NCBI GenBank assembly: GCA_965243735.1
Contig: CBDEVZ010000008.1
Location: forward strand, 1,624,302 to 1,688,301
DNA: 64,000 nt
Direction: 5' to 3'
DNA from: an uncultured Candidatus Binatia bacterium
Lineage (GTDB): Bacteria > Desulfobacterota > Binatia > Bin18
The notes beneath the pieces were generated by a model, which did no database searches, was not told where the DNA came from, and worked only from the letters and a program-made list of their open reading frames with translations. The position numbers were made by a program, and so were the translations under genes. This document shows, piece after piece, positions 4,643 through 54,558 of the stretch. The stretch's first letter is position 1, and each line of letters begins with the position of its first letter.

Positions 4643-4644
4643 GC

Positions 4645-11279: not shown

Positions 11280-11285
11280 GCCCCG

Positions 11286-26500: not shown

Positions 26501-29500
26501 GGCAGCATCTATGCCGACTGGAACGTGGACCTGGACGGCGATACTACGACCGACGACCCCTGGGACTTCGGCACGGCCAGTCAGTACCCGGCGCTCCGCG
26601 TGGACTTTGACGGTGATGATACGGCAACCTGGGAGGAGTTCGGCCAGCAACTCCGCGAAATCCCGACCCTGACCCCCGACACCTCGACGGTGGGTCAGGT
26701 AGACTTGAGCTGGACGGCGGTCACGAACTCTGCGGGCTCGGCGGCTGTGACCTACACCGTCATGCGCGGCGACACTCCCATCGCCGAGGACCTCAGCACG
26801 ACGACCTACACCGATACCGATGTGACATCGGGGAGCGAATACACCTACCAGGTGATCGCCCTGGTCGACGGCGGGGAGGCTACGCGCAGCGCCCGGCTGG
26901 CGGTGACCGCGACCGCGAACCAGAAACCGGCGTTCGATGAAGGCGACAGCGCCATGCGCAGCGCGGACGAGAACACGGCCTCGGGTGTCAATATCGGGGA
27001 CCCGGTGGCAGCCACCGACATCGACGACACCAGTCTGATCTACACGCTGGGCGGGACGGACGCGACCTCTTTCGACATCGTCTCGACCACCGGACAGTTG
27101 CAGACCAAGACGGCCCTGAACTACGAGGCCAAGCGTCGCTACACGGTCAGCATCTCGGTCCGGGACGGCAAGAACAACGACGGCGAGGCCGACATGACCA
27201 CGGACGACACCATCACCGTGACCATCGATGTCGGCAACCTGGACGAAGCGGGCACGGTGACGCTCTCGGGGACTCCGGCACAGGCAGGGCGGCAACTGAC
27301 CGCGACGCTGAGCGACCTCGACGGCGGTCTGAGTGGCATCTCCTGGCAGTGGGAGCGGTCCAGCGACCAGAGCAACTGGACCGACATCACTGGGGAGACA
27401 TCCACTCAATACACGCCAGTAGCGGGCGACATGGGGGATTATCTCCGGGCCACGGCACGCTATACCGATGGCCAGGGGTCCGGGAAGAGCGCGGCGGCGG
27501 TGACGGCCCAGGTTCAGGCCGCGCCGGTGGTGGAACTGAGACTGTCGCCGCCTCGGATTGATGAGGACGGGGGGACGAGCACAGGGGTGAGCAGGGTCAC
27601 GGCGCATCTGCTGAACAATCGGACCTCACTCGCAAAGACGACCGTGCGCGTAACAGCCACGGCCCTCGCGCCGGCTCAGGCGGGGGATTTTACCCTCAGC
27701 GGCAATCAGCTGACGATCGCGGCAGGGGCATTGGCGAGCACTGAAACGGTAACGATTACCGCTAGAAACAACAATGTGGACGCCCCGGACAAGACGGTCA
27801 CGGTGAGTGGGCTGGCGACCAACTCTGATGGCGTCACCGGCCCGGCCTCGGTGGACCTGACGATCACGGACGACGACCCAGCCCCGAGCGTAGAACTGGT
27901 GCTGTCGCCCGCCCAGATCAGCGAGAACAACCAAGTGAGCACGGTGTCGGCGCGGCTGAGCCATCCGTCGAGCGCGGATACGACCGTGACCGTCTCGTCG
28001 CAGGCCGTGAGCCCGGCAGTGGCGGGCGACTTCATGCTGAGCACAAACACCACGTTGACCATCACGGCAGGGGCAACGGCAAGCAGCGGCACCGCTGTCA
28101 CGCTGACCTCGGTGGATAATTCCACCGACGCCCCGAACAAGCAGGTGACGGTAAGCGGGACGGCGACGAATACGCACGGTATCGCCGGAAACCCGGATAA
28201 TGCCACGCTCTTGATCACCGACGACGAGGGGGCGCCGAGGGTGACACTGACGTTGTCGGAGACGCAGATCGATGAGAGCGGTGCGGATAATAGCGCCACG
28301 CTGGCGGTGACCCTGAGCCATGCGTCGAGTGCGGCGACGACGGTGACGGTCTCGACAGACCCGGCGGAGGCCGTCACACTCAGCCCAAACCCATTGACGA
28401 TCTCGGCAGGGAACACCGAGGGCACAGTGACGCTGACGGCAGTGGACAACGAGATTGATGGGCCGGAGACCAAGCGGGTAACTATCTCGGCGGAGGCGGA
28501 GAACGACCAGGGGGTCACGGACCCGGCCAATAAGACGCTGACGATTGCAGACGATGACAATCCGCCGGTGGTGACGCTGGAGCTGTCGGCTACTCCGATT
28601 GATGAAAACGGTGGGCAGAGCACGCTGACGGCGAGCTTGGACCGGGCATCGAGCCAGCAGATCGTGGTGACGGTGGCGACAGCGACGGAATATGCCTTGA
28701 GTACGCCCCGCACCCTGACCATCCCGGCGGGGAAGACAGCGAGCGAGGGAAACACGGTCACGCTGACGGCCAAGGACAACAACATCGACGCGGCGGACGC
28801 GGAGATCACGGTGGAGGGGACGGCCAACCTGAGTGGGCTGACAGTGACGGGGGTGGAGCTGACCATCACGGATGACGATACGCGCGGGGTGACGGTCAGC
28901 GAGAGCACGCTGTCGATCAAGGAAGGGCAGACCGACACCTATACGGTGGTGTTGGACTCCCAGCCGACGGCGACAGTAACGGTGACGCTGGCCGTCACGC
29001 AGACTGATGACGCCGTGGGCACCAATCAGGCGAGTCTGACGTTCGCGCCGGGGAACTGGAACACGGCCCAGACGGTCACGGTGCGGGCGGCCGACGATAC
29101 GGTGGAGAACATCCCTCCCAAGACAGCGACGATCACGCACACGGTGACGGGCGGCGACTACGGAGAGAACAACGTCCGGGCGGCCTCTGTATCGGTGACC
29201 GTGACCGACGACGAGAGTGCGTCCACGGCGGTAACCCTGCGGGTGAACCCAGAGGCGGTGACCGAGGGGAGCAGCAACCGGACAGTGACCGTGACCGGCG
29301 AGTTGGATGGGGCACCGCGCGGTACTGACACCACGGTGACTATCTCGGTCACATCCGGGAGCGGGGACGAGGCAGCCGTGGAGGGCACCGATTTTGACGA
29401 GGTGGCGGACTTCACGCTGACGATCAAGGCGGGTCAGCCGAGCGGGATGGCAACCTTCACCCTGACGACGGAGAACGACACTATCGATGAGCCGGACGAA

Positions 29501-31786
29501 ACGGTGACGGTAGAGGGGACGGTGACGGGGCTGACCGTGAACCCGACGACGCTGACCATCACGGACGATGACCCGCCACCGACAGTGACGCTGGAGGTGG
29601 CGGACAATTCGATCACCGAGAGTGGCGCGGATAACAACACGACAGTGAGGGCGACGCTCAGTCATCCGTCAAGCGAGGTGACGACGGTGGAGGTGACGGC
29701 TACGGCCGTGCCGCCGGCGGTGGACGGTGACTTCACCCTGAGCGGAGCGAGTTTGACCATCCCGGCCAGGCAGACAGAGAGCAGCGGGAGCGCGACGCTG
29801 ACGGCGCAGGATAACGCGGAGGATGAGGTGGACAAGCGGGTGCGCGTGACCGCGCGGGCGACCAACACCCAAGGGGTCAGGTCGACGACTGTGGCAGCGG
29901 TCACCGTGACGATCACCGATGACGACCCACCTAAGGTGGAGGGCGAGATCGCTCCAACGTACGTGGAGGGCGGGACGGGGCCGGTAGCGACGTACACGGC
30001 GAGTAACCCGGCCAATGTCAGGCTGACGTGGTCGCTGGATGGCACTGACAAAGACACCTTTACCATCCCGAACGGGGTGCTGCGCTTCAAGCAGTCCCCG
30101 GACTATGAGGATCCGAACAACTCGGACAAAGAATATGCGGTCACCGTGCAGGCCTCCGACGGGACGGTCACCGGCGAATTGCCGGTCCTCGTCACCGTTG
30201 AGGATGCATTGGGCACAGTCCGTTTGTCCGCGTCACAGCCCAGGGTTGGGTCCTCGCTGACGGCGACAGTGAGTGACCCGGACGGCGTGGATACGGCCAC
30301 CACCGAGTGGTGCTGGGAGCGCTCCCTCCTCCCGAGCCCCCAGGCGGATACCACTGAGGCCGACTGCACCCCGACCACGGCGGCGACTTATACGCCGGTA
30401 GACGACGACCTCGGCCACTATCTGCGGGCCACGGTGACCTATACCGACAACCAGGAGACACCCAAAAGAGAGGCCGTAGAGGCGGTGACGACGAACACGG
30501 TCTTGGCGCGAGGCGGCGGCGGTAGGGATGGTGGAGGCGGGGGCGGCGGAGGTGGAGGTGGGGGCGGCGGAGGTGGGGGCGGTAGAGGCGGCGGCAGTGC
30601 CCCTGCCTGTACGCAGGACGATGTGCACGGCAACAGTCCGACCCAGGCCACTGACATTGCGCTGTCTGCTGTGACTGCCGGAGCGATCTGTCCCGCTGGC
30701 GACGTGGATTATTTTGCCGTGACCGCTCCCGGCCGGGGCCTCCTCTTTGTGGAGACCTTCGGTGGGGCGAGTCCTCGCGGCACGCTCTGGCAGGACGGCG
30801 CGGTCTTGGCGTCCGGTCCCCGCCCGGATACTCGGCTGGGCGCCCGCGTGGAGGCCGGCCCAGTCGTCGTAGCGCTGCAAGGGCAGGGGGGAGCGACTGG
30901 GGCATATGAGGTGATCATCACCTTCGTGCAGGGCTTTCTGGAGAACCCTGGCTCCGCCTCGTTCCAAAGTGGGGTGGGGGTGCTGTCGGGCTGGGTGTGT
31001 GAAGCGGACATGGCGGAGATCGAGTTGAACGGGGTGCCGCAGGAGGCGGCGTATGGAACGGATCGGCTGGACACAGCCGGCGTCTGTGGCGACGTGGACA
31101 ATGGGTTTGGCCTCTTGTTCAACTGGAACCTGTTAGGCGACGGCGTGCATGCCATCGTTGCTCTGGTCGATGGGGTGGAGTTAGGCCGGGTGACGGTGAC
31201 GGTGACCACGCTGGGCGCGGAGTTTCTGCGGGGCGTGGCAGGGGAGTGTGTGGTGGCCGACTTCCCGAGTGCGGGCGAAAGTGTGCGACTGGTATGGCAG
31301 GAGGCACAGCAGAATTTCGTGCTGGCCGAGGGCGCTGCGCCGACAGGGGCTTCCCGCTCCGGGACGCCCGGCGTCGGGGTTCTGGAGAACCCGAGTCCAC
31401 GCTCGTTTCAGAGTGGGATCGGCGTGCTGTCGGGCTGGGTATGCGAGGCGGAGGAAGTCGTTATTACGATTGGCGACCTGGCCCCACAAGTAGCCGGCTA
31501 CGGCACCGAGCGCCTGGACACCCAAGGCGTGTGTGGGGACACGGCCAACGGCTTCGGCTTGCTGTTCAACTGGAACCTGCTGGGCGACGGAGCGCACGAA
31601 GTGGTAGCCAGCGTAGATGGGGTCGAGTTGGGCCGGACCACGGTACGGGTGACGACCTTGGGCGAGGAGTTCGTGCGGGGCGCTGTGGGGGAGTGTGTGG
31701 TGGCGGACTTCCCGCATCCGGGCGCGACGGTAACGCTCACCTGGCAGGAGTCCAGCCAGAACTTTGTGATTACCCAAGTGGAGTGA
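23576..31786 (+). CDS. Giant secreted metzincin paralog (2736 aa): reprolysin-like protease (HELGHIMGLLHD), Calx-beta, Ig-like, GLUG-like repeats, FN3, cadherin, ~10 Calx-beta/Ig-like modules, long poly-Gly linker, PPC, tandem novel CTD (A 30931-31350, B ~31375-31783)
   Basis: Same domain order as 12051..19100. DVDYFAV PPC motif. CTD-B is ~95% identical in nucleotide sequence to the CTD-B of gene 38292..41519. Confidence 0.85.
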   Translation: MIPLPSWSAAPHLKRLLLAALLLLPLLSGGMVHAQSVIDVAVFYTTAAKDAQGGTEQIETKIDELVVAANMAYTDSDVNQTIKLVAAEEVAYPETGSIRIDVERLRDPSDGYLDEVHTIRDRVHADIVILLRAQWDGEISGVAYTMGTESTTHAPNAFGVSIVDASTFAHELGHIMGLLHDRYEACQHNTATPQCRSSVVAPYAYGYVNQAAFESGAATSKRWRTIMATNKQCADNSPSFNCDRVLYFSNPDNSYPDADGDPMGVSGTQDTTDIDGPADAAQALDDTRDTVADFREGRAVQVSFAAGAYAVTEGGSVTVTVQLDVAPGRTLDMPIALTATSPDGAWPGDYSLPASVTFSASQTTQTFTFRATQDTRQEDEETVILGFGTPLPAGVSVGSQATATVTLTDNDTVAAAPSVSTVEIVSDPGAAYAAGEEIVVAVVFTKPISVTGVPSIELTVGTNTRTALCQDVASEVLTCTYTVVADESDTDGVSVVANSLALNGGTIQDEETTPQDAALTHDAVAADSAHTVDGDTPDLESATVDEDTVTLTYDEALDETSVPRANAFTVTAGSTTVLTTSVEVSGEVVTLDLVSRVAHDDSVTLTYSPSTGTPSLRDAAGNAAATLSSYALTNNTPQPVYDTDDDRLIEIATLAQLNAVRHDLDGDGTPTTTGAADYAAAFPDATRVVCGVTSGGCAGYELTVDLDFDTSGDGQIDADDEYWNSGAGWVPIGTASDRFRTTFEGNGRAIRHLFIKRSSSDNVGLFGYTGLSSVIRHARLRDVAVQGKRGVGGLAGTNQGSVTENSATGRVEGGSGSVGGLVGINFGEIHASYATVRVVGGFHAGGLVGQVSGDIFASYATGRVSGTSGVGGLGGRMATDGQGNIQASYATGSVSGNNHVGGLIGSFAAGTIHASYATGRVAGNGSAVGGLVGESPDDPTITASYWDTRTSGRTNSAGGDGQTTTALQTPTGYTTGSIYADWNVDLDGDTTTDDPWDFGTASQYPALRVDFDGDDTATWEEFGQQLREIPTLTPDTSTVGQVDLSWTAVTNSAGSAAVTYTVMRGDTPIAEDLSTTTYTDTDVTSGSEYTYQVIALVDGGEATRSARLAVTATANQKPAFDEGDSAMRSADENTASGVNIGDPVAATDIDDTSLIYTLGGTDATSFDIVSTTGQLQTKTALNYEAKRRYTVSISVRDGKNNDGEADMTTDDTITVTIDVGNLDEAGTVTLSGTPAQAGRQLTATLSDLDGGLSGISWQWERSSDQSNWTDITGETSTQYTPVAGDMGDYLRATARYTDGQGSGKSAAAVTAQVQAAPVVELRLSPPRIDEDGGTSTGVSRVTAHLLNNRTSLAKTTVRVTATALAPAQAGDFTLSGNQLTIAAGALASTETVTITARNNNVDAPDKTVTVSGLATNSDGVTGPASVDLTITDDDPAPSVELVLSPAQISENNQVSTVSARLSHPSSADTTVTVSSQAVSPAVAGDFMLSTNTTLTITAGATASSGTAVTLTSVDNSTDAPNKQVTVSGTATNTHGIAGNPDNATLLITDDEGAPRVTLTLSETQIDESGADNSATLAVTLSHASSAATTVTVSTDPAEAVTLSPNPLTISAGNTEGTVTLTAVDNEIDGPETKRVTISAEAENDQGVTDPANKTLTIADDDNPPVVTLELSATPIDENGGQSTLTASLDRASSQQIVVTVATATEYALSTPRTLTIPAGKTASEGNTVTLTAKDNNIDAADAEITVEGTANLSGLTVTGVELTITDDDTRGVTVSESTLSIKEGQTDTYTVVLDSQPTATVTVTLAVTQTDDAVGTNQASLTFAPGNWNTAQTVTVRAADDTVENIPPKTATITHTVTGGDYGENNVRAASVSVTVTDDESASTAVTLRVNPEAVTEGSSNRTVTVTGELDGAPRGTDTTVTISVTSGSGDEAAVEGTDFDEVADFTLTIKAGQPSGMATFTLTTENDTIDEPDETVTVEGTVTGLTVNPTTLTITDDDPPPTVTLEVADNSITESGADNNTTVRATLSHPSSEVTTVEVTATAVPPAVDGDFTLSGASLTIPARQTESSGSATLTAQDNAEDEVDKRVRVTARATNTQGVRSTTVAAVTVTITDDDPPKVEGEIAPTYVEGGTGPVATYTASNPANVRLTWSLDGTDKDTFTIPNGVLRFKQSPDYEDPNNSDKEYAVTVQASDGTVTGELPVLVTVEDALGTVRLSASQPRVGSSLTATVSDPDGVDTATTEWCWERSLLPSPQADTTEADCTPTTAATYTPVDDDLGHYLRATVTYTDNQETPKREAVEAVTTNTVLARGGGGRDGGGGGGGGGGGGGGGGGGRGGGSAPACTQDDVHGNSPTQATDIALSAVTAGAICPAGDVDYFAVTAPGRGLLFVETFGGASPRGTLWQDGAVLASGPRPDTRLGARVEAGPVVVALQGQGGATGAYEVIITFVQGFLENPGSASFQSGVGVLSGWVCEADMAEIELNGVPQEAAYGTDRLDTAGVCGDVDNGFGLLFNWNLLGDGVHAIVALVDGVELGRVTVTVTTLGAEFLRGVAGECVVADFPSAGESVRLVWQEAQQNFVLAEGAAPTGASRSGTPGVGVLENPSPRSFQSGIGVLSGWVCEAEEVVITIGDLAPQVAGYGTERLDTQGVCGDTANGFGLLFNWNLLGDGAHEVVASVDGVELGRTTVRVTTLGEEFVRGAVGECVVADFPHPGATVTLTWQESSQNFVITQVE

Positions 31787-31897
31787 GCCCCACCGGGGTG
31801 AATCCGCGCGGCTTGTTCGCATTTTCTTTCATTTTCTCGGTCCTCTCTGCCCATCTGGGCAGCGTATTTTTCCTGACGATCATGTACAGGCAGTGAA
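31787..31897 (+). promoter_or_regulatory. Post-stop module M5: hairpin, CT tract (31811-31846), palindrome CTGCCCATCTGGGCAGCG (31847-31864), TGTACAGGCAG box (~31884)
   Basis: Conserved module family. Confidence 0.45.
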
Positions 31898-34800
31898 CCT
31901 CTTGCCTGGTGCAGGCAACTCGCTTGTGAGGGGCAGGAGAACTGAACCCGGCCGCAGGGCAGGGAAGAGTGACCATGCGGATGGCCCGGCAATTTTTTCT
32001 ATGCGAACAGGCCATTATGGCAGACAGGGCGCGGAGAAGCGCTTGTTTCTCCTGGTCAGAATTTTTCAAACCGAGACACTCTCTCCATTCCTCCGGCGTT
32101 CCGGTAAGAGACTGCCGCTGCGGCTCGCTTCCCGCAGCGTTCTGGCGCTCCTTGCCGGCATCCTGACCCTGCTGCCTCCGGTCGTTCTGGCCCAGGCGGA
32201 CGACCCGGCGCTGAGCGTGGACATCTGCGACCGCACCGAACAGGTGAGGTCGAGGATACTGCTGAAGGTCTCCGCCACCGACTGCACCGATGTTTCGACG
32301 AGTGAGCTGGCAGCGATCACCACGCTGAGTGCGACCTCGAACGGCGTCCTCTCCTTGCGAGCTGGTGATTTCGCCGGGCTGACCGGTCTGAAGAAGCTGT
32401 ACTTGGCAAGAAATCATCTGATCGGTCTGCCGGCGGATATCTTCGCCGAACTGTCCAGTCTGACGGAGTTGGACTTGGCAAGCAATCGACTGATCAGTCT
32501 GCCGGCGGGCCTCTTCGATGCCCTGTCCAGTCTGGGGAAACTGAACCTGTCAAACAACCCCGACCTGTCCTACTCGCCCTATCTGCTGAGCCCATTGACC
32601 AGCCTGACACAGCTCAACGGTACAGCGTACACCTCCCCGGCGCCTCCCGGCGCCCCGACTGGCCTGACGGCAGCGTTCACCGACGAACACATCGCCCTCA
32701 GTTGGACCTCCCCGGCAACCGGCACCCCTACCAGCTACCGGATTCTGCGCCAAGCGGGCACCGATCCACAGGCAGTCTATGTCGCGGACACCTACGCTGC
32801 CCACCGGGACGCCGTCACGTATACCGACACCGGCGTGACCGCTGGTGAGACCTATACCTACCAGATTCAGGCCCTGAACGCGGGAGGCGCCAGTGCCGGG
32901 TCCAACCTGGCGGTCGCAGTCGTGGACATCTGTGGCCGCACCGAGTCCGTGCGCACCACAATACTCGCGGTGGTCACCGCTACCGACTGCGCGCTCGTGT
33001 CCATTAGCGAACTGGCAGCCATCACCAGCCTGGACCTGAGCGGCGCGTCCATCACCACGTTGCAAGCGGGTGATTTTGCCGGAATGACCGGCGTGACCAC
33101 GCTGGACCAGCCTGACGATCTCGACGCGTCGGCCTACTCGCCCTATCTGCTGAGCCGGCTGACCAGCCTGACGCAGCTCAATGGGGCGTCGTACACCCGT
33201 CCGGCGCCCCCCGGCGCCCCGACTGGCCTGACGGCAACGTTCACCGACGGACACATCGCCCTCCGCTGGACGGCCCCGGCGACCGGCGCCCCCACCAGCT
33301 ACCGGATTCTGCGCCAAGAGGGGGTCGGTTCGCAGGTAGTGTATGTGGCGGACACCTACGCTGCCGGCGGGACGGCGGTGACCTACACCGACACCGGCGT
33401 GACCGCTGGTGAGACCTACTGGTATCAGGTTCAGGCGCTGAACGCGGGGGGCGCCAGCGCCGGGTCCAACATGGCGGCAGCGAGAGCGTTCGTGCCGGTG
33501 AACATCTGTGGTCGCACCAGCCGGATGCAGAGGGCGATACTGGCCAAGCCGGTGGTGATCGCCACCGACTGCGCCCTGGTCTCACCGAACAAGTTGGCCG
33601 CCATCACCAACCTGGAACTGGGAAATGGCTACCTGCACTCGTTGCGCTCGCGTGATTTCGCTGGCATGACGGGCCTGATGAGGTTGGACTTGCACGGCAA
33701 TCGTATAACTCGGTTGCCGGCAGGCGTCTTCGACGAGCTGCCCAACCTCACGTATCTGAATCTCGACGCTACTAACCTGATGGCGTTGCCGGCGGGGGTG
33801 TTTGACAAGCTGACGAAGCTGACCACGCTGGACCTCTGCGCTAATGAACTGAGGACGTTGCCGGCGGGGATATTTGACAAGCTGACGGAGCTGACCACCC
33901 TGGAACTATACCTCAATGATCTGAGGACATTGCCGGCGGGTATCTTCGACCGCCTGCCCAACCTGACCAAGCTGTATCTCTACAGAAATGAGCTAACGTC
34001 GTTACGGGCGGGGGTGTTTGACAAGCTGATGAATCTGAGCAGCTTGCTGCTACACGAAAATGATCTGACCAGTCTGCCGGAGGGCATCTTCGACGAACTG
34101 TCCAGTCTGAGAGAGCTGAACTTGGCAGAAAATGACCTGACCAGTCTGCCGGCAGGCATCTTCGATGAACTGTCCAACCTGACGGAGCTGAACCTCGTAG
34201 ACAACTCCAACCTGTCCTACTCGCCCTATCTGCTGAGCCCGCTGACCAGCCTGACGCGGCTCAGCTATGCCCATTACACCCGTCCGGCGCCCCCCGGCGC
34301 CCCGACTGACCTGACGGCAACGGTCCGAGCCGCTGGTATCCACCTCAGTTGGACCGCTCCGGCGACCGGCACCCCCACCAGCTACCGGATTCTACGCCAA
34401 GCGGGCACCGATCCGCAGGAAGTCTACGTCGCGGACACCTACGACACCGGCGGGACGGCGGTGACCTACACCGACACCGCTGTGGCCGCCGGCGAGACCT
34501 ATACCTACCAGGTCCAGGCGCTGAACGCGGGGGGCGCCAGCGCCGGCTCCAACGAGGCTGAAGCGACCATGTCTTCCGTGGCAAACATTTGCGACCGTAC
34601 CGGGCCAGTCCTGACTGCCATACTGGCGCAGGTCTCCGGCACCGCCTGTGGTCGCGTGCTAACGAGCCAACTGGCAGCGATCACCAGCCTGGACCTGAGC
34701 GGAGCGTCCATCGCCGCGTTGCAAGCGAGTGATTTCGCCGGGCTGTCCGGCCTGACCAGCCTGGGTCTGAGCGACAATACTCTCGGTGCGTTGCCGCCGG

Positions 34801-36032
34801 GCGTGTTTGACCCCCTGTCCAGTTTGACAACGCTGGACTTGAGCGACAATGCCTTGACCGCGTTACCGGCGGGCGTCTTCGATGCCCTGTCCAGCCTGAC
34901 GACGCTGAACCTGGCCAACAACTCCGCTCTGTCCTACTCGCCCGAAGCGTTGAGCCCATTGACCAGCCTGACGCGCCTCAACGGGGAATCGTACACCCCT
35001 CCGGCCCCCTCAAACGCCCCGACTGACCTGGCGGCGACTATCACCACCGGTGGGATCGCCCTCCATTGGACGGCCCCCACGACCGGGGTGGTCACCAGCT
35101 ACCGGATTCTGCGTCAGGAGGGGGCCGGTCCACAGGAAGTCCATGTCGCGGACACCTACGCGAGCGGCGGGGCGGCGGTGACCTATACCGACGCCGACAT
35201 CACGGTCGGCGAGACCTACCGGTATCAGGTTCAGGCGCTGAACGCGGGCGGGGCCAGTCCCAAATCCAACGAGGCGGTTGTGGCGCTGACTGCGGTGGTG
35301 GACCTCTGCGACCGCACAGAGCCCGTGCAGACCGCCGTCGTGGAGGCGGTCCACACCATCACCTGCGCCCCCTTTTCAGCTGTCAAGCTGGCGGCGATCT
35401 CCATCCTGGACCTGAGCGGGCAACACATACGCGCGTTGCGAGCGAATGATTTCGCCGGCATGTCCGGCCTGACGGTGCTGAATCTGCGCGAGACCGATGT
35501 AGAGTCGTTGGAGGCGGGGGTGTTCGACCCCCTGCCCGACCTGATCACGCTGGATCTGCACGGGAATCAGCTCGAGTCGTTACCGGGCGGAGTGTTCGAC
35601 GCACTGTCCCAACTGGCCACGCTGGACTTGAGCAACAATCTCCTGCGCGGGTTACCGGCAGGCGTGTTTGACTACCTGTCCGCGCTCACGACGCTGGACC
35701 TGAGCAACAATAACCTCAGTGCGCTGCCGCCGGGCGTGTTTGACCACCTGTCCAGTCTGACCACGCTGGACTTGAGCAACAATGCGCTGGCCGCACTGCC
35801 GGCGGATCTCTTCGATGCTCTGTCCAATCTGGCCACACTGGACCTGAGCAACAATACGCTAACCGCGCTACCCGCGGGCATCTTCGATGTCCTGTCCAAT
35901 CTGACCACGCTGCGTCTCAACAATAACCCCGACCTGTCCTACTCGCCCGAAGTGTTGAGTCGGCTGACCCGCCTGACGCGCCTCAACGGCGCCCCGTATA
36001 CCCCCCCCAGCGCTCCCGAGCACCCCGACTAG
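31893..36032 (+). CDS. Secreted LRR + FN3 modular protein (six LRR-block/FN3 units); N-terminal portion of a frameshifted gene that continues in ORF 36076..38169
   Basis: Signal peptide (LASRSVLALLAGILTLLPPVVLAQA); probable start ATG 32001. LRR consensus L..L.L..N.L..LP.G.F. FN3 (APPGAPTGL...YRILRQ...YQVQALNAGGAS). The ORF ends just after a C8 tract (36001-36008). The +1 frame continues the same FN3 repeat into the next ORF. Confidence 0.75.
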   Translation: MNLLPGAGNSLVRGRRTEPGRRAGKSDHADGPAIFSMRTGHYGRQGAEKRLFLLVRIFQTETLSPFLRRSGKRLPLRLASRSVLALLAGILTLLPPVVLAQADDPALSVDICDRTEQVRSRILLKVSATDCTDVSTSELAAITTLSATSNGVLSLRAGDFAGLTGLKKLYLARNHLIGLPADIFAELSSLTELDLASNRLISLPAGLFDALSSLGKLNLSNNPDLSYSPYLLSPLTSLTQLNGTAYTSPAPPGAPTGLTAAFTDEHIALSWTSPATGTPTSYRILRQAGTDPQAVYVADTYAAHRDAVTYTDTGVTAGETYTYQIQALNAGGASAGSNLAVAVVDICGRTESVRTTILAVVTATDCALVSISELAAITSLDLSGASITTLQAGDFAGMTGVTTLDQPDDLDASAYSPYLLSRLTSLTQLNGASYTRPAPPGAPTGLTATFTDGHIALRWTAPATGAPTSYRILRQEGVGSQVVYVADTYAAGGTAVTYTDTGVTAGETYWYQVQALNAGGASAGSNMAAARAFVPVNICGRTSRMQRAILAKPVVIATDCALVSPNKLAAITNLELGNGYLHSLRSRDFAGMTGLMRLDLHGNRITRLPAGVFDELPNLTYLNLDATNLMALPAGVFDKLTKLTTLDLCANELRTLPAGIFDKLTELTTLELYLNDLRTLPAGIFDRLPNLTKLYLYRNELTSLRAGVFDKLMNLSSLLLHENDLTSLPEGIFDELSSLRELNLAENDLTSLPAGIFDELSNLTELNLVDNSNLSYSPYLLSPLTSLTRLSYAHYTRPAPPGAPTDLTATVRAAGIHLSWTAPATGTPTSYRILRQAGTDPQEVYVADTYDTGGTAVTYTDTAVAAGETYTYQVQALNAGGASAGSNEAEATMSSVANICDRTGPVLTAILAQVSGTACGRVLTSQLAAITSLDLSGASIAALQASDFAGLSGLTSLGLSDNTLGALPPGVFDPLSSLTTLDLSDNALTALPAGVFDALSSLTTLNLANNSALSYSPEALSPLTSLTRLNGESYTPPAPSNAPTDLAATITTGGIALHWTAPTTGVVTSYRILRQEGAGPQEVHVADTYASGGAAVTYTDADITVGETYRYQVQALNAGGASPKSNEAVVALTAVVDLCDRTEPVQTAVVEAVHTITCAPFSAVKLAAISILDLSGQHIRALRANDFAGMSGLTVLNLRETDVESLEAGVFDPLPDLITLDLHGNQLESLPGGVFDALSQLATLDLSNNLLRGLPAGVFDYLSALTTLDLSNNNLSALPPGVFDHLSSLTTLDLSNNALAALPADLFDALSNLATLDLSNNTLTALPAGIFDVLSNLTTLRLNNNPDLSYSPEVLSRLTRLTRLNGAPYTPPSAPEHPD

Positions 36033-36075
36033 CCTGACGGCGACCATCACTAGCGGCGGGATCGCCCTGCACTGG

Positions 36076-38169
36076 ATGGCCCCGGCGACCGGGGTGGTCA
36101 CCAGCTACCGGATTCTGCGCCAAGCGGGCGCCGGTCCACAGGAAGTCTATGTTGCGGACACCTACGCTGCTGGCGGGGCGGCGGTGACCTACACCGACGC
36201 CGACATCACGGTCGGCGAGACCTACCGGTATCAGGTTCAGGCGCTGAACGCGGGCGGAACCAGTCCCCCGTCCAACGAAGCAGTCCTGACTGCCACGAAT
36301 GCCATTTTCAGGGTGACCAGTGCCGGGCCGTTCACGGTCCAAGAAGGAACGACCGCCGTCGCCACGCTCACGGCCTCAGTCTCCAGCACGTCGAGCAACT
36401 CGCTGACCTGGTCTATTCCGTCCGGTCCAGCCGGCGGGGCGGACGGGCACGCGTTCTCGCTCAGTTCCTCCGGCAGCTTGACTTTCAGAGCCGCGAAGGA
36501 TTTCGAGGCGCCGGACGACGCCGACACGGACGGGATCTACGAAGTCACTGTGCAGGTAGACGGTGACGCGGAGGCAGCCCTCGCAGAGGCAACCCTCCGG
36601 GTGACTTTAGACAACGTTGATGAGCCGGCGGTGATCACCTTGTCAACGACGCAGCCGCAGGTTGGGCGTGCCCTGACCGCTACTCTGACCGATCCCGACG
36701 GCACCGTTTCCGGCATTACATGGACGTGGACGTCTTCCGCAGACCACACAAGCTGGACCCCGATCCCAGGAGCTGATTCGGCCGTCTACACACCGCAGGT
36801 CACCGACTTGGGGCACTACCTGCGGGTCACGGCCTCGTACATTGATGATGTCTTTGGGGCCGGCAGGAGCGCCCCGGCGGTGCTGACCGACATCGTGCAG
36901 GTCGCCCCGGTGCGGCGTCCCCCAGAGGGAGGGGGTGGCGGAGGGGGTAGAGGCAACGGCGGCGGCGGTCCTGCCTGCACCCAGGACGACGTGCACGGCA
37001 ACACCGCCGCCCAGGCGACTGTCATTGCCCTGGACACGCTGACGGCGGGGGCCATCTGTCCGGCCGCTGACGTGGATTATTTTACGGTCACCATCCCCGA
37101 GCGAGGGCTCGTCTTTGTCGAGACCACCGGCACGGGGCCGCTCCGGGGGACGATCTTGCAAGATGGCGTGGTCTGGGCATCCGGCCCGATAGGCGGAAGG
37201 CAGGCGCGCGGCCGGCTGGGGGTGCTCGTCCAGGCTGGCCCCGTGGTCGTGGCTGTCCAAGGCCAGGGGAGCGCGACCGGGGCGTACACCCTCGTCGTCA
37301 CCTTCGTGCGGGGCACTCTGGAGAACCCGAGGCCAGCGTCGTTCCAAAGTGGCGTCGGAGTGCTGTCAGGCTGGGTGTGTGAGGCCGAAGAGGTCGAGAT
37401 AGAGATTGTAGGGACTGGGCGGCAAGGGGCGGCGTACGGCACTGAGCGGCTGGACACGGCCGGCGTGTGTGGCGACACGAATAATGGCTTTGGCTTGTTA
37501 TTCAACTGGAACCTGCTGGGCGGCGGCGAGTATGAAGTGGTGGTCTTCGTCGATGGCCTCGTATTGGGCTGGGCAACAGTGCGGGTGACAACCCTGGGGG
37601 AGGAGTTTCTGCGAGACGTGGCAGGGGAGTGTATGGTGGCCGACTTTCCGAGCGCGGGCGAGAGCGTGCGGGTGGTGTGGCAAGAAGCGCAGCAGAGCTT
37701 CGTGCTGGCCGAGGGCAGCGCGCCGACCGGGGCTTCCCGCTCCGGGATAGCTGGGGTGGGCTTTCTGGAGAACCCGAGTGCCAACTCGTTTCAGAGCGGC
37801 ATCGGGGTGATTTCGGGCTGGGTGTGTGCGGCGGATGAGGTGATGATCACGATCGGGGACTTGGCCCCGCAGATGGCCGGCTACGGTACGGAGCGCCTGG
37901 ACACGTTGGCTGTGTGTGGGGACACGGACAACGGCTTCGGCTTGCTGTTCAACTGGAACCTACTGGGGGACGGGGAGCATGAAGTGATCGCCACGGTGGA
38001 TGGGACCGAGTTGGCCCGCACCACGGTGCGGGTGACGACGCTGGGGGAGGAGTTCGTACGGGACGCCGTGGGGGAATGCACGGTGGCGGACTTCCCGCAT
38101 CCGGGCGCGACGGTCACGCTCACCTGGCAGGAGTCCAGACAGAACTTTGTGATTAGCGAGATTGAGTGA
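36076..38169 (+). CDS. C-terminal portion of the LRR-FN3 gene: FN3, cadherin-like, Gly linker, PPC, tandem novel CTD (A 37311-37730, B 37759-38166)
   Basis: Its frame is open from ~36025 and encodes PTSLTATITSGGIALHWMAPATGVVTSYRILRQ, which continues the FN3 repeat of the upstream ORF. DVDYFTV PPC motif. The CTD tandem is the same as in the other giants. Confidence 0.75.
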   Translation: MAPATGVVTSYRILRQAGAGPQEVYVADTYAAGGAAVTYTDADITVGETYRYQVQALNAGGTSPPSNEAVLTATNAIFRVTSAGPFTVQEGTTAVATLTASVSSTSSNSLTWSIPSGPAGGADGHAFSLSSSGSLTFRAAKDFEAPDDADTDGIYEVTVQVDGDAEAALAEATLRVTLDNVDEPAVITLSTTQPQVGRALTATLTDPDGTVSGITWTWTSSADHTSWTPIPGADSAVYTPQVTDLGHYLRVTASYIDDVFGAGRSAPAVLTDIVQVAPVRRPPEGGGGGGGRGNGGGGPACTQDDVHGNTAAQATVIALDTLTAGAICPAADVDYFTVTIPERGLVFVETTGTGPLRGTILQDGVVWASGPIGGRQARGRLGVLVQAGPVVVAVQGQGSATGAYTLVVTFVRGTLENPRPASFQSGVGVLSGWVCEAEEVEIEIVGTGRQGAAYGTERLDTAGVCGDTNNGFGLLFNWNLLGGGEYEVVVFVDGLVLGWATVRVTTLGEEFLRDVAGECMVADFPSAGESVRVVWQEAQQSFVLAEGSAPTGASRSGIAGVGFLENPSANSFQSGIGVISGWVCAADEVMITIGDLAPQMAGYGTERLDTLAVCGDTDNGFGLLFNWNLLGDGEHEVIATVDGTELARTTVRVTTLGEEFVRDAVGECTVADFPHPGATVTLTWQESRQNFVISEIE

Positions 38170-38300
38170 GCCCCACCCCGCGCTTCTGTCGGGGCGGAGC
38201 TTGCCTGCCCGGTTCTCGTTTGTTCCTCCTTTGTCCGTTTTTTTGCCTTTCCTGCCCATTTGGTCAGCGATAGACGCCGTGGCGCTCTTCTATGCTCGTG
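38170..38300 (+). promoter_or_regulatory. Post-stop module M6: CT tract (38210-38251), palindrome CTGCCCATTTGGTCAGCG (38252-38269), TTCTATGCT box (~38286)
   Basis: Conserved module family. Lies immediately upstream of the next giant gene, whose likely true start is ATG 38340. Confidence 0.4.
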
Positions 38301-41300
38301 GTCGGAGCGGAGCACATGCACGCACGAGGAACAAGAAGAATGCTGCTGCTGCTGGTTCTCCCGGCGGTGCTGTCATTGTGTACAGGTGGTCACGTCCAGG
38401 CTCAGGAGCCCGCCAGCGTCCCGGGGGTCGAGAAGGTCGCTTTCACGGACGGGATAGCTCGTTACAAACTGAACGACATCATCGAAGTGACGGTGACGTT
38501 CAGCGAGGTCGTAGCCGTTACCGGCACACCGCAAATCGACCTGACCATCGGCTCCATGACCCGCCAAGCCGACTATCAAAGCGGCCCGCCCTCGACAGCC
38601 CTGGTCTTCCGCTACACCGTGATGGACACCGATGAAGACACCGACGACGACGGGGCCACGGTTGACGCCAACGGTCTGAAGTTGAACGGCGGCAGCATCA
38701 AAAAACACAATACCGACATTGATGCCGACCTGACGCACGAGGCGCATGTGGAGCCGAAGTATATTAACACGGTCGACGGCATCACGCCGGTCCTGTCGAC
38801 CGCAGCGGCGTACGGCGACCAACTCGTGCTGACCTACGACGACACACTCTGGCCATATTCGCGGACGCCCGCCAGCGCCTACGTCGTGAAGGTGAACAAT
38901 GCGGTGCGCGGTGCCAGCACCCCCTTGATAAGCCACCGTTTCGTCACGCTCACCCTCGCTTCGGCGGTGCTGCCAAGCGATCAGGTGACGGTGAGTTACA
39001 TCGTTGGAGAGCATCCCGTCCGGGACGAGGCGGGCAACCAGGTAGCGGCGCTGGTCAACCAGGCAGTGACGACCTCCGCTCCGTATGTCAGCAGTCTGGA
39101 GATCAGCTCGTCGCCGGCGGCCCGCCGAACCTACGCCGGGGGGGAAGTGATCGAACTCAGGGTGACGTTCAGCGAGAGCGTCACGGTCACGGGCGCCCCT
39201 CGGCTCTTACTCACGTTCGAAAGTACTGGCCCCTATGAACGAGCCGCGCCCTACGTGAGTGGGTCGGGGACGACCGTCCTGGTGTTCAAGTACACTGTTG
39301 CTGAGGGGCTCGACCGCTTCTTTGTGTGGGCTCTGCGCCTGCTTGGGCGTTGGCGGGAGGAGCTGACGGTCGGAGACGAAGACCCCGACGGGTTGAGCAT
39401 CGCCGTCGACGCGCTGGACCTGAACGACGGGACCATCCGCGACAGCGACAACCAGGACGCGCTGCTGGTCCTCGACGAACTGACGGATGTCGGGGGACAC
39501 AAGGTGGATGGTCTCTGGCCACAGTCGGACGTGCTGAATGATCCGTATGTCGTCAATGGGGCGACGCTGATGTTGCACTATGAGGAAATGCTGGACGAGA
39601 ACTCGGTCCCAGCCGGCGATGCGTTCGCGGTGACCGCCGGGGGAACGATGCACGCAGTCACCGACGTTTCGATAGACGACAGGACGGTCACACTGACACT
39701 CGACACTCCGGTTGGAGCAAACGACGCGGTACGGTTGAGTTATACGGCGCCGACTGGAACGGAGGCAATGCCCGTCCAGGACTTGGTCGGAAACGATGCG
39801 CAAGATTTTACCGACCGGCTGGTGAGGCCGCCATTGGGTATTAGCGTGTCTTTTGGTGCTGACCGGTACACCGTGGACGAAGGGCAGGCCGTAGAGGTCA
39901 CGGTCCGGCTGAGTGCAGACCCGGAGCGCCGGGTGGAGATTCCGTTGGCGCTCACACCTGGGGACAATGTAGAGGCGTCTGATTATACGGGCGTCCCGCA
40001 CACGGTTGTGTTCAAGAGCGATGAGCGTGAACAGTCCTTTTCCTTCAGTGCCCTCGCCGATCAGGAGAATGAGCAATCCGAGACCGTCACCATCGGCTTC
40101 GATGCGTCGCTACCGACCGGGATGGAGGCGGGGAGTCCCGCCACCACGGTCGTGACAATCGTGCAGCCGCCTCAGCAAGAGGGGAACGGCCGCGACGAGG
40201 GCAGCAGCAATACGGCGCCGAGCGGGCAGCCGACCATTGCCGGCACGGAGCAGGTGGGCGAGACACTGACGGTGGACGTGAGTGGGATTACGGATCCGAA
40301 CGGACTCACGCAGGCCAGCTTCAGATACGAGTGGGTGCGGGTGGCCGGCGGCAGCGAGACGACTATAGCGGGCGCGACGGGTAGCGCCTACACGGTAACG
40401 GCCGCAGATGTGGGCAGCCGGCTCAAGGTGCGGGTGGGCTTCACGGACGATAACGGGACAGACGAGGCAGTGGAGAGTGCGCTGACGGGAGTAGTGGCGG
40501 CGGCGCCGGCGCCAGAGAACGGGGGCAGCGGGGGCGGCGGGGGCGGCGGCAGGGGCAGTGGAGGCGGCGGTAGTAGCGGCGGGGGCAGTGGAGGAAGTGG
40601 GGACGGCGGCAGTGGCGGTAGCGGCAGCAGTGGGGGCGGCGGGGGGTCGTCAGCGGAGCCGGTCGGGTACTTGGAGAACCCAGGGGACAATTCCTTTCAG
40701 AGCGGGCTTGGGGTGATTTCGGGCTGGGTGTGTGCGGCCGATACCGTCGAGATTGAACTCAACGGGGTGCCGCGCGTGGCGGCGTACGGGACCGAGCGGT
40801 TGGACACCCAAGGCGAGTGCGGGGACACGGACAACGGCTTTGGGTTGCTGTTCAACTGGAACCTGCTCGGGGATGGCGAGCATGAGGTCGTGGCCTACGC
40901 GGATGGCATTGAGTTGGGCCGTGTCACGGTGACGGTGATCACGCTGGGCGCGGAGTTTCTGCGGGGCGTGGCAGGGGAGTGTGTGGTGGCCGACTTCCCG
41001 AGTGCGGGCGAAAGTGTGCGACTGGTATGGCAGGAGGCGCAGCAGAATTTCGTGCTGGCCGAGGGCGCTGCGCCCACGGGCGTGACCCAATCCGGGACGC
41101 CCGGCGTCGGGGTTCTGGAGAACCCGAGCCCACACTCCTTTCAGAGTGGGATTGGCGTGCTGTCGGGCTGGGTCTGCGAGGCGGAGGAAGTCGTTATTAC
41201 GATTGGCGACCTGGCCCCACAAGTAGCCGGCTACGGCACCGAGCGGCTGGACACGTTGGATGTCTGCGGGGACACCGACAATGGCTTCGGCTTGCTGTTC

Positions 41301-41519
41301 AACTGGAACCTGCTGGGCGACGGGGCGCACGAAGTGGTGGCCAGCGCAGATGGGGTCGAGTTGGGCCGGACCACAGTGCGGGTGACGACCTTGGGCGAGG
41401 AGTTTGTGCGGGGCGCTGTGGGGGAGTGTGTGGTGGCGGACTTCCCGCATCCGGGCGAGACGGTGACGCTCACCTGGCAGGAGTCCAGCCAGAACTTTGT
41501 GATTACCGATCTGGAGTGA
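38292..41519 (+). CDS. Giant secreted protein: signal peptide, multiple Ig-like (SwmB/SbsA-like, GTP.L.L..G...Y.SG motif) domains, Calx-beta, long Gly/Ser linker, tandem novel CTD (A 40663-41090, B 41108-41516); no PPC
   Basis: 1075-aa ORF. Signal peptide MLLLLVLPAVLSLCTGGHVQA begins at the third in-frame ATG (38340). Over 170 nt of its CTD-A are identical to gene 23576..31786. Confidence 0.85.
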   Translation: MLVVGAEHMHARGTRRMLLLLVLPAVLSLCTGGHVQAQEPASVPGVEKVAFTDGIARYKLNDIIEVTVTFSEVVAVTGTPQIDLTIGSMTRQADYQSGPPSTALVFRYTVMDTDEDTDDDGATVDANGLKLNGGSIKKHNTDIDADLTHEAHVEPKYINTVDGITPVLSTAAAYGDQLVLTYDDTLWPYSRTPASAYVVKVNNAVRGASTPLISHRFVTLTLASAVLPSDQVTVSYIVGEHPVRDEAGNQVAALVNQAVTTSAPYVSSLEISSSPAARRTYAGGEVIELRVTFSESVTVTGAPRLLLTFESTGPYERAAPYVSGSGTTVLVFKYTVAEGLDRFFVWALRLLGRWREELTVGDEDPDGLSIAVDALDLNDGTIRDSDNQDALLVLDELTDVGGHKVDGLWPQSDVLNDPYVVNGATLMLHYEEMLDENSVPAGDAFAVTAGGTMHAVTDVSIDDRTVTLTLDTPVGANDAVRLSYTAPTGTEAMPVQDLVGNDAQDFTDRLVRPPLGISVSFGADRYTVDEGQAVEVTVRLSADPERRVEIPLALTPGDNVEASDYTGVPHTVVFKSDEREQSFSFSALADQENEQSETVTIGFDASLPTGMEAGSPATTVVTIVQPPQQEGNGRDEGSSNTAPSGQPTIAGTEQVGETLTVDVSGITDPNGLTQASFRYEWVRVAGGSETTIAGATGSAYTVTAADVGSRLKVRVGFTDDNGTDEAVESALTGVVAAAPAPENGGSGGGGGGGRGSGGGGSSGGGSGGSGDGGSGGSGSSGGGGGSSAEPVGYLENPGDNSFQSGLGVISGWVCAADTVEIELNGVPRVAAYGTERLDTQGECGDTDNGFGLLFNWNLLGDGEHEVVAYADGIELGRVTVTVITLGAEFLRGVAGECVVADFPSAGESVRLVWQEAQQNFVLAEGAAPTGVTQSGTPGVGVLENPSPHSFQSGIGVLSGWVCEAEEVVITIGDLAPQVAGYGTERLDTLDVCGDTDNGFGLLFNWNLLGDGAHEVVASADGVELGRTTVRVTTLGEEFVRGAVGECVVADFPHPGETVTLTWQESSQNFVITDLE

Positions 41520-41640
41520 GCCGCCCCGTCGTCCCACCGGGGCAGTGGCTGACCGGTCAGTCCTCTTTTCCCGTCTTTTTCGCCGCTTCTGCTTATATGG
41601 GTAGTGCATTCCTCGTGCCAGTCGTGTATAGGAAGTGGCC
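41520..41640 (+). promoter_or_regulatory. Post-stop module M7 (degenerate): hairpins, CT tract, CTGCTTATATGGGTAGTG (41589-41606), TGTATAGGAAG box (~41624)
   Basis: Same layout as M1-M6 but the palindrome half-sites have mutated. Confidence 0.35.
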
Positions 41641-44654: not shown

Positions 44655-44800
44655 GATGCCGTGTAGCCCTTCGACTTCAGGCGCGCTGCGCCTTACGCTC
44701 AGGACCAACGGCTTCCCGTTCGTGCTGAGCGTAGCGGAGCGAAGTCGAAGCACGGATGCCGGATCGCGCTCGGCAGGGCTACAGCCTAACGTGAAACGCT
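44655..44800 (-). repeat. MITE-like repeat (half A type), reverse orientation
   Basis: Reverse complement of 44700-44800 aligns with 11286-11400, sharing GCGTTTCACGTTAGGCTGTAG and TGCTTCGACTTCGCTCCGCTACGCTCAGCACGAACGGGA. Long internal hairpin CTTCGACTTC...GAAGTCGAAG. Confidence 0.5.
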
Positions 44801-48608: not shown

Positions 48609-48640
48609 ACGCCGGAACCACGCGAGAAGGTCGATTGCGC

Positions 48641-49621
48641 CTAAGCCGGCTCTACACGTTTTGTGACTGGCTGGCTGGCTTTTGCGGCTTGATACTCGTG
48701 CCGCAGCCGGCCAACCAGCTCCCGCACGACCGGCACGTCGTGGATGCAGCCGGCCGTGTGTCCGGCGCTCCAGATGTCGCGGTAGCGCCTTTTGCTGCCG
48801 GGGTCGAGGTCTTTTGCCACATCGATCATGCCCCGCTCGGGAAGGGTGTCGGGGTCGAGTCCGGCGGCCTCAATCGACTGCCGAATCATATTGGTCTCCA
48901 GGCCGCTGAAGGCTTTGGTCAGCGTGATGCCGTCCATGTTGGTGCCGACGATCATGCGCTTATAGGCTTCTGGGGCCATGCTCTCCTGGGTGGCGATAAA
49001 ACGCGTGCCCATATACGCCAGGTTACAGCCCAGCGCTTCGGCGGCGTGCAGCGCCGTGCCGTCGGCCACCCCGCCGGCCAGGACAAGCGGGCCGTCAAAG
49101 ACTTCCCGGACCTGGCGGACAAAGGCGAAGGGGTTGGCCCAGCCGGTCTGACCGCCGGCCCCTGCGGTCAGGAGGATCAGGCCGTCCGAGCCGGCGGCCA
49201 GGGCTTTTTCCACATGCCGCATGCTGGCCACGTCGGCATACACCACGCCGCCGTAGTCGTGGATGGGCTCGATGATGGCGTGCGGGCTGCCGACGCTGGC
49301 GATGACCAGCTCAATCCGGTGCTTTCTGACCAACTCCAGATCGTCCTCCAAACGTGGGTTCGAGCGGTGCACAATCAGATTCGCGCACGGTGGCGCAACC
49401 GGCTGTTCGGGGTGGGCCGCCCGAAAATCGCTCAGCCGCCGGGTAATCTGACTCAGCCAGTCGTCCAACTGCTCAACGGTTCGACAGTTGGCGGTCGGGA
49501 AGGCACCGATAACGCCGGCCTGGCAGGCCTCAATGACCAGTTCCGGGCCGGATACCAGGAACATCGGAGCGGCGATCAGGGGCAGACACAAACGGTCGTC
49601 AAACTGGGCGGGAATGGGCAC
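48641..49621 (-). CDS. Nitronate monooxygenase (NMO / 2-nitropropane dioxygenase family)
   Basis: FMN-binding TIM-barrel pattern (LIAAPMFLVSGPELVIEACQAGVIGAFP). Confidence 0.8.
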   Translation of the reverse strand: MPIPAQFDDRLCLPLIAAPMFLVSGPELVIEACQAGVIGAFPTANCRTVEQLDDWLSQITRRLSDFRAAHPEQPVAPPCANLIVHRSNPRLEDDLELVRKHRIELVIASVGSPHAIIEPIHDYGGVVYADVASMRHVEKALAAGSDGLILLTAGAGGQTGWANPFAFVRQVREVFDGPLVLAGGVADGTALHAAEALGCNLAYMGTRFIATQESMAPEAYKRMIVGTNMDGITLTKAFSGLETNMIRQSIEAAGLDPDTLPERGMIDVAKDLDPGSKRRYRDIWSAGHTAGCIHDVPVVRELVGRLRHEYQAAKASQPVTKRVEPA

Positions 49622-49693: not shown

Positions 49694-49796
49694 CGGTTCA
49701 CGATAGGCTGTCGTAGGTCGGATTAGCGGAGCGTAATCCGACACGTACGGGATGTCGGCTTACGCCTACGGCTCACCCGACCTACACGGCTACACA
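49694..49796 (-). repeat. MITE-like repeat (half B type with terminal inverted-repeat end), reverse orientation
   Basis: Reverse complement matches 54456-54558, including the terminal GCCCTATCGTGAA(G/C)CG. Confidence 0.5.
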
Positions 49797-53300: not shown

Positions 53301-53303
53301 TCT

Positions 53304-54443: not shown

Positions 54444-54455
54444 TATCTTCTCCTA

Positions 54456-54558
54456 GCCGTGTAGGTCAGGTTAGCCGGAGGCGTAACCTGACATCCCGTA
54501 CGTGTCGGATTACGCTCCGCTAATCCGACCTACTACGCCCTATCGTGAAGCGCACTAG
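54456..54558 (+). repeat. MITE-like repeat (half B + terminal inverted repeat)
   Basis: 54456-54537 matches 11428-11508 with 1 mismatch. Terminal GCCCTATCGTGAAGCGC is the inverted counterpart of GCGTTTCACGTTAGGC at 11288. Confidence 0.55.

Follow-up and report, generated by a model that had tools for sequence, protein, structure and literature searches.

The question raised by this locus is how two genes with bodies that show no similarity in DNA come to end in nearly the same 600 bp. The genes, g5 and g8, lie in a stretch of 64,000 nucleotides (nt) of contig CBDEVZ010000008.1 from an uncultured Candidatus Binatia bacterium, referred to here as the window, the first 41.5 kb of which is a tandem array of genes on the plus strand, g1 to g8. 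All seven genes of the array (g6 and g7 being halves of one) share an end of 284-285 codons encoding a tandem pair of C-terminal domains (CTDs), CTD-A of 148 residues including the linker and CTD-B of 136 residues, ending in ...QNFVITDVE-stop. Comparison of the copies indicates that g5 and g8 have very probably been homogenised over their 3'-terminal ~600 bp by ectopic (non-allelic) gene conversion. The two genes and the parts of their ends are as follows, all on the plus strand:

23576-31786, plus strand: g5, 2736 codons, with the CTD pair at 30932-31783 (open reading frame list, Pfam)
38292-41519, plus strand: g8, 1075 codons with a body of 791 codons; CTD pair at 40665-41516
30932-31178 in g5, corresponding to 40665-40911 in g8, plus strand: 5' part of CTD-A, apparently unconverted, 247 nt, 70.4% identical
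31179-31786, plus strand: putative converted tract, g5 copy; last third of CTD-A, linker, whole CTD-B and stop codon
40912-41519, plus strand: putative converted tract, g8 copy, of which the 40920-41090 segment singled out by the earlier note is the initial portion
31179-31340, plus strand: clean block 1, ~97% identical between g5 and g8
31341-31360 in g5, 41074-41093 in g8, plus strand: divergent island 1, the inter-domain linker, 60% identical
31361-31510, plus strand: clean block 2, ~97% identical between g5 and g8
31511-31550 in g5, 41244-41283 in g8, plus strand: divergent island 2, 70% identical, of mixed ancestry
31551-31774, plus strand: clean block 3 (distal), ~97% identical between g5 and g8

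Segment 40920-41090 of g8, described earlier as essentially identical to part of CTD-A of g5, matches g5 31187-31357 at 159 of 171 positions (93.0%), and up to the inter-domain linker (40920-41074) at 151 of 155 (97.4%), including an exact run of 99 nt; none of the other 20 paralogue pairs has an exact run of more than 45 nt. CTD-B (41108-41519 versus 31375-31786) is identical at 384 of 412 positions, that is 93.2% and not the ~95% first estimated. The high identity of these two stretches thus stands, their separateness does not, and they belong to one continuous tract (g5 31179-31786, g8 40912-41519) with 567 of 608 positions identical (93.3%) and 41 differences. The tract starts abruptly: in a codon-aligned sliding window the identity is ~71% up to g5 31178 / g8 40911 and 93-100% from there to the stop codon, where the tract ends, the 3' flanks of the two genes being 48% identical. 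Self-comparison of the window gave 86.9% for 30939-31795 versus 40672-41528, and 72-80% DNA identity for other CTD pairs. The description of the N-terminal parts as unrelated is fair at the DNA level, although distant repeat modules (34-40% amino-acid identity) are common to both bodies; the extent of 2,000 or more codons given for these parts does not hold for g8, in view of its length.

Homogenisation is seen most clearly at synonymous sites. Synonymous divergence (dS, Nei-Gojobori method) was calculated for the 21 paralogue pairs formed by the seven CTD pairs, g5/g8 included. For g5/g8 it drops from 2.07 before the breakpoint to 0.19 within the tract. In the same columns the other 20 pairs have a dS of 0.57-1.2, and their ratio of non-synonymous to synonymous divergence (dN/dS) is 0.09-0.24 throughout. 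A Sawyer-type maximal-fragment test (403 polymorphic sites, 2000 site permutations) placed the maximal fragment at g5 31179-31774 / g8 40912-41507, with a score equalled in 0 of 2000 permutations; weaker, older mosaic signals were found for g2/g7, g4/g8 and g3/g4. The nearest neighbours also switch at the breakpoint (alignment column ~300): on its 5' side g5 groups with g1 and with its orthologue on scaffold L079 and g8 groups with g3 and g2, and on its 3' side g5 and g8 pair with each other. The proposal of gene conversion between the two CTD segments made in the earlier note is therefore borne out by the sharp breakpoint, the homogenised synonymous sites, the neighbour switch and the permutation result. 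No sign of conversion between CTD-A and CTD-B was found, every A and B copy retaining its own signature.

The differences within the tract are unevenly spread. The three clean blocks have a dS of 0.10-0.12 each, and the differences in them comprise 14 synonymous and 4 non-synonymous changes, with both reading frames intact. The two islands lie between the blocks, and the last three codons of g5 and g8 also differ. In island 1 g5 retains the sequence of its L079 orthologue, L079 agreeing with g5 and not with g8 at 8 sites and the reverse occurring at 0, which suggests that g5 kept its own linker there. The codons of island 2 read TQGVCGDTAN versus TLDVCGDTDN.

The orthologue, P0164 on ENA scaffold L079 (sample ERZ23495159 / SAMN17524327), is the only close relative of g5 that was found (the next best match is 64% identical), and the housekeeping genes of L079 are 94-97% identical to window positions 42.7-51.3 kb. 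On this scaffold the g5 body (94.8% identical just 5' of the CTD) leads through the CTD pair into a g8-type 3' flank (g8-type at 90 sites, g5-type at 7) and on to an ankyrin gene, without g6, g7 and the g8 body. The relation of the three sequences changes along the tract. In blocks 1 and 2 taken together g5 agrees with g8 and not with L079 at 31 sites, L079 agrees with g5 only at 6 and with g8 only at 2, and over the proximal region 31179-31510 L079 differs by 11-14%; in block 3 g5, g8 and L079 are all 96-97% alike. Since g5 and g8 are the same in the proximal blocks and distant from L079, these blocks (31179-31510) were probably homogenised, or re-homogenised, in this lineage. The g8 product matches protein P0121 at 100%, which is the source copy on the NCBI record; besides it, no close g8 orthologue was found in a collection of 5.8 billion proteins, the next best match being 67% identical, and a metagenome scan for g8 orthologues returned one irrelevant locus only.

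A further relative, CBDBEO010000001.1, has the gene order g1' - g6/7' - g5', the upstream region of g5' starting ~30 nt past the stop codon of g7'. Its g1' body is 82% identical to g1, and the CTDs of g1' and g1 are 76% identical, no closer than to other paralogues. Gene content and order thus change at the CTD ends. Together with the fusion of g5 to the g8-type flank in L079, this arrangement agrees with the earlier description of the locus as recombination-prone. In L001, from the CBDBEO relative itself, a CTD-like stretch of about one domain (6362-6775, minus strand, ~415 nt matched) lies just 3' of the g1' CTD and may be the remnant of another rearrangement.

The proposed mechanism is RecA-type homologous recombination between the paralogous CTD segments, two directly oriented copies separated by 9733 bp. 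Invasion of one copy by a strand of the other would give a heteroduplex extending to the end of the homology at the stop codon, and the islands would stem either from mismatches repaired in patches or from small conversions with third paralogues at a later time. As the dS within the blocks is similar to that of the flanking orthologues between the window and L079 (0.13-0.26), the event would be roughly as old as the split from L079. In the sequence of events envisaged, the distal block would have been common to g5 and g8 before the lineages split; the proximal blocks would then have been homogenised, or re-homogenised, in the lineage of the window; and in the L079 lineage the same homology was probably resolved as a crossover, with deletion of 9.7 kb. 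Conversion would be an occasional by-product of many homologous 3' ends and not what keeps the domains alike.

Several points weigh against this account. Non-reciprocal transfer is presumptive, the searched collections having yielded no close g8 orthologue that would tell donor from recipient. L079 is a metagenome scaffold, and its junction between g5 and the g8-type flank could be a jump of the assembler through the shared tract, against which it counts that P0121 alone represents g8 among the 5.8 billion proteins. The L079 CTD also holds g7-like and g8-like patches of its own, and part of the signal at sites where g5 equals g8 and not L079 could come from the L079 lineage, in which third paralogues may have replaced the proximal blocks. 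The reads of one paralogue might also have built or polished the other, repeated CTDs being a known hazard for assemblers and two genes of the cluster being frameshifted, one at a C8 homopolymer, as is typical of indel-prone assemblies. Such an artefact is nevertheless very improbable, as it would hardly leave 41 differences with the observed excess of synonymous changes and intact frames; identity jumps sharply from 70% to 97% and stays high over 600 nt, and short reads would not cross-map to a copy that is 75% identical. The distal block is moreover present at 96-97% in L079, an independent assembly from another sample, and similar partial tracts occur in complete Binatia chromosomes of other projects.

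If the tract arose by crossover or segmental rearrangement, g6-g7-g8 would have come to lie beside g5 through unequal crossing-over, or through insertion or duplication of a cassette, with the tract as the trace of that event; the ancestor would have been L079-like, with g5 followed directly by the ankyrin gene, and the tail would have been duplicated in the process. The structure of L079, in which the g5 body is followed by a 3' flank of the g8 type and then by the downstream genes known from the window, agrees with such an origin, as do the want of a close g8 orthologue elsewhere and the gene order of the CBDBEO genome, which is different again. A single crossover with an incoming segment, however, yields two hybrid CTDs and not a duplicate of 600 nt, so that a duplication step would still be required. 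The 5' parts of CTD-A are homologous and yet 70% identical, the tract thus being embedded in older homology as conversion predicts; the islands are more readily explained by repair of a heteroduplex than by the clean junction of a duplication, and a one-step deletion in the L079 lineage is the simpler account of L079. Rearrangement as the source of the tract is accordingly considered unlikely. Least probable, to the point of being negligible, is an origin without any recombination, through convergent codon usage or through an extreme constraint acting on the DNA or RNA itself: purifying selection on the CTD protein is indeed strong, but constraint would affect all copies, and the same columns are diverged at synonymous sites in the 20 other pairs. 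Ectopic conversion between g5 and g8 is hence the preferred explanation.

Whether such conversion keeps the whole family alike is a separate matter. In duplicated tuf genes and rRNA operons, ectopic conversion and concerted evolution keep the entire family nearly identical. The g5/g8 case resembles these in that a putative RecA-dependent transfer between paralogues of the same genome, presumed here to be non-reciprocal, is seen as tracts homogenised at synonymous sites; it differs in that homogenisation is rare and partial. Outside the tract the seven CTD pairs of the window have a dS of 0.57-2.1 and a dN/dS of 0.09-0.24. The nearest sequence to the g7 CTD is its CBDBEO orthologue (82.6%, versus at most 80.3% to any copy in the window), and 93 CTD pairs from 15 genomes average 69.7% DNA identity when compared within a genome and 67.5% when compared between genomes. 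Concerted evolution as a state of the whole family was rejected in view of this near-saturated dS, the orthologous nearest neighbours and the within- and between-genome identities. The earlier note had argued that concerted evolution implies strong selection for mutual compatibility of the CTDs, and these values do not support it. Instead, dS near saturation with a dN/dS of ~0.15 indicates that the protein similarity of the CTDs is maintained by ordinary purifying selection, conversion being sporadic. Its sporadic traces are not confined to the window: in a scan of other Candidatus Binatia genomes, complete chromosomes included, 10 of 860 within-genome CTD pairs contained a segment of 150 nt or more with an identity of roughly 95% or higher, as did 1 of 3418 between-genome pairs, the latter being a true orthologue pair. 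One of these segments is 173 nt long and 100% identical, in a pair with an overall identity of 76%; in several within-genome pairs the CTD alone is 97-99% identical and the upstream sequence unrelated.

The domain pair itself (284 residues) has no match in Pfam or NCBIfam and none in the PDB by sequence-profile search; it is modelled as two immunoglobulin (Ig)-like sandwiches. A profile built from the 14 copies in the window matched 2610 cluster representatives (clusters formed at 50% identity), 2087 of them at E <= 1e-10, with exactly two tandem copies in nearly all matches. Among species-representative genomes the matches come almost all from Candidatus Binatia metagenome-assembled genomes, a single chromosome carrying no fewer than 37 copies. 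One full CTD pair with 69% amino-acid identity was seen on L033 (NZ_CBDCEO010000013.1) of Candidatus Poriferisodalis, an actinobacterial sponge symbiont, and may reflect horizontal transfer between co-resident symbionts. The association of Binatota with sponges is documented (PMC9999580). The window encodes ankyrin, LRR, fn3 and cadherin proteins (Pfam), which fit a sponge-associated lifestyle.

The earlier note had proposed secretion machinery as a possible partner of the CTDs. Inspection by eye showed Sec-type signal peptides (basic n-region, Leu-rich core, ...HAQ|S) at the start of g2, g3, g5 and g8 and of the 5' open reading frame (ORF) of g4. Moreover, in one subfamily (P0456, P0457, P0460, P0465, P0466, P0473, P0479, P0480) the pair occupies the mature N-terminus, at residues ~30-330, following a signal peptide ...WAQ|ATLENPQP... 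and preceding LDL-receptor class B, CARDB, He_PIG or fn3 modules. The pair is thus not intrinsically C-terminal, and this placement together with the Sec signals argues against an obligatory C-terminal secretion signal and weakens the idea of a secretion partner. A C-terminal signal of the type IX or type I secretion kind was downgraded as a candidate on the same grounds. The CTDs of type IX secretion substrates such as mirolase and PPAD differ from the present pair, which has no match to a type IX sorting model in Pfam or NCBIfam, consists of domains of ~140 residues that are always tandem and N-terminal in some members, and is found in the phylum Binatota and not in Bacteroidota. Type I substrates (of the repeats-in-toxin kind) have no N-terminal signal peptide and carry an uncleaved C-terminal signal, unlike the Sec-type signal peptides here; HemolysinCabind had no match in the scanned genes g4, g5, g6, g7 and g8. 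The ORFs scanned at 41.7-63 kb of the window gave no Pfam match to a secretion component. The pair may, with low confidence, be regarded as a common anchoring or ligand-binding module. Its D-x-D-N-G loops and three of its cysteines are conserved, which points to Ca2+ sites and possibly to a disulphide.

The closest documented analogue of the g5/g8 case is the bab family (babA/babB/babC) of Helicobacter pylori adhesin paralogues, which have a divergent middle and a C-terminal region that is >90% identical (PMC4552749), and in which intragenomic recombination and gene conversion produce chimeras and strains differ in their genotype at each locus (PMC4552749). Both are paralogous surface-protein genes that combine a divergent part with a similar C-terminal region and undergo interlocus conversion. 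In bab, however, the C-terminal region is an outer-membrane beta-barrel anchor, whereas here it is a soluble-looking tandem Ig-like pair with most copies at 72-80% DNA identity. The bab genes occupy dispersed loci, and their conversion alters adhesin expression and phase variation; g5 and g8 are neighbouring loci in a tandem array, and the segment converted is the conserved tail and not the variable part.

Conversion between paralogous surface-protein genes is textbook knowledge and the mechanism is not new. What is new is an example in uncultured sponge-associated Binatia, on an undescribed domain family borne by dozens of exported proteins per genome. The passengers of the CTD pair include metalloproteases and cadherin-, LRR-, fn3-, Calx-beta- and SWM-repeat proteins, the tails recombine measurably, and it is exactly at the tails that the gene content of relatives differs. 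The L079 fusion and the CBDBEO gene order suggest re-assortment of genes at these ends, and it is conceivable, although rather doubtful, that the CTD pair with its conserved terminator flank serves sponge-associated Binatia as a portable cassette of homology. If so, recombination between tails would, beyond converting sequence, delete, re-order and re-assort whole passenger genes, close symbionts would carry differing repertoires of adhesins and enzymes, and the tandem Ig-like pair would be a common module for anchoring to the envelope or the host matrix. The locus offers a handle on the diversification of the 'eukaryotic-like' surface repertoire of sponge symbionts and on the role of the domain pair, and it is a caution to annotators and assemblers that CTD 3' ends are hot spots of recombination and mis-assembly.

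A second trace of recombination had been noticed at the end of g2, where an imperfect duplicate follows an insertion. Its parts are:

11200-11287, plus strand: end of g2 that is duplicated downstream; last 26 codons, stop codon and 8 nt
11288-11506, plus strand: insert of 219 nt, containing two small dispersed repeats
11507-11594, plus strand: out-of-gene copy of the g2 end, 95% identical to 11200-11287 over 88 nt (direct repeat D1), adjoining the native 3' flank

The duplicate is thus confirmed as an 88-nt copy, in which 4 clustered differences give the g2 remnant codons of the g5/g8 type (WQESS). A unit of ~130 nt of the insert recurs at 44697-44799 (minus strand) and in L069 and L001. An 80-nt doublet at 11427-11506 recurs at 54455-54534, at 49713-49791 (minus strand), in L067 at 4566-4645 and in L069 at 3206-3285; it consists of two convergent GTAGG-headed palindromic halves that would fold together as a single long hairpin (-19 kcal/mol, z -3.9), and is 92-99% conserved at intergenic positions in the window and in other Binatia genomes. 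This element looks like a REPIN (a hairpin-forming doublet of repetitive extragenic palindromes, REPs), and in its inverted GTAGG-headed halves, its hairpin and its intergenic dispersal in this and related genomes it resembles REPs, REPINs and miniature inverted-repeat transposable elements (MITEs) alike. It differs from these in that the insert after g2 is flanked by the 88-nt duplication, far longer than a usual target-site duplication. No cognate transposase of the insert was identified, an IS1595-type transposase being the only one noted in the window; a REP-associated tyrosine transposase (RAYT) was neither searched for nor found there. The earlier label of a MITE was therefore roughly right as regards a short dispersed hairpin unit, the target-site duplication and the cognate transposase being wanting.

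The remaining genes of the array and one element of its flanks are:

59-4642, plus strand: g1, CTD pair at 3788-4642; may extend beyond the left edge of the window
4887-11279, plus strand: g2, CTD pair at 10425-11279
12051-19100, plus strand: g3, CTD pair at 18246-19100; body a paralogue of the N-terminal region of g5 (71% in DNA)
19560-22456, plus strand: g4, DUF285 gene (Pfam), frameshifted; CTD pair at 21602-22456
31893-38169, plus strand: g6 and g7, LRR/fn3 gene split by a frameshift, g7 being the 3' half; g7 CTD pair at 37312-38169
31847-31862, plus strand: terminator-like hairpin CTGCCCATCTGGGCAG followed by a T run, in the 3' flank of g5

Behind its signal peptide, g5 carries a reprolysin-like domain of an M12 metalloprotease and modules of the types GLUG, cadherin, Big_5 and DUF5818 (Pfam), together with a PPC-like linker; g8 carries, behind its own signal peptide, SWM_repeat and Calx-beta modules (Pfam) and a Gly/Ser linker. 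Both end in the CTD pair. The 3' flanks that follow the CTD pairs are related, and some contain a terminator-like hairpin: nearly the same motif as CTGCCCATCTGGGCAG lies behind the g2 remnant (~11660-11675), and a diverged copy lies behind g7. The N-terminal metalloprotease regions of g3 and g5 are paralogous over ~2.4 kb (11885-14313 versus 23410-25859, 71% DNA identity), a similarity that takes in ~166 nt 5' of the start codons, and their signal peptides are near-identical. In g4, the ORF 19560-20309, which encodes the signal peptide and the initial repeats of DUF285, overlaps the out-of-frame ORF 20249-22456 within a 75-nt tandem array (20066-20871). In g6 (LRR/fn3) and g7 (fn3 and CTD pair) the frame changes near 36001-36008, adjoining a C8 run, and the relative L002 has a single unbroken ORF of at least 1946 codons over this region; the split may be genuine, marking a pseudogene or a phase-variable tract, or may come from an assembly error at the homopolymer.

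Outside the array, an RHH_5 / PemK toxin-antitoxin pair is present in L079 (11582-12353) between amidohydrolase and nitronate-monooxygenase genes, and the counterpart site in the window (48620-48681) comprises only ~60 nt. At 52164-53921 of the window lies a module of two genes, for an AAA_15/AAA_21 ATPase and for a protein with DUF3226, that corresponds to PDC-M38, a candidate defence system in PADLOC (A: E 1e-84; B: E 2.5e-39). The IS1595-family (ISXO2-like) transposase gene lies at 59269-60204 on the minus strand, amid metabolic genes.

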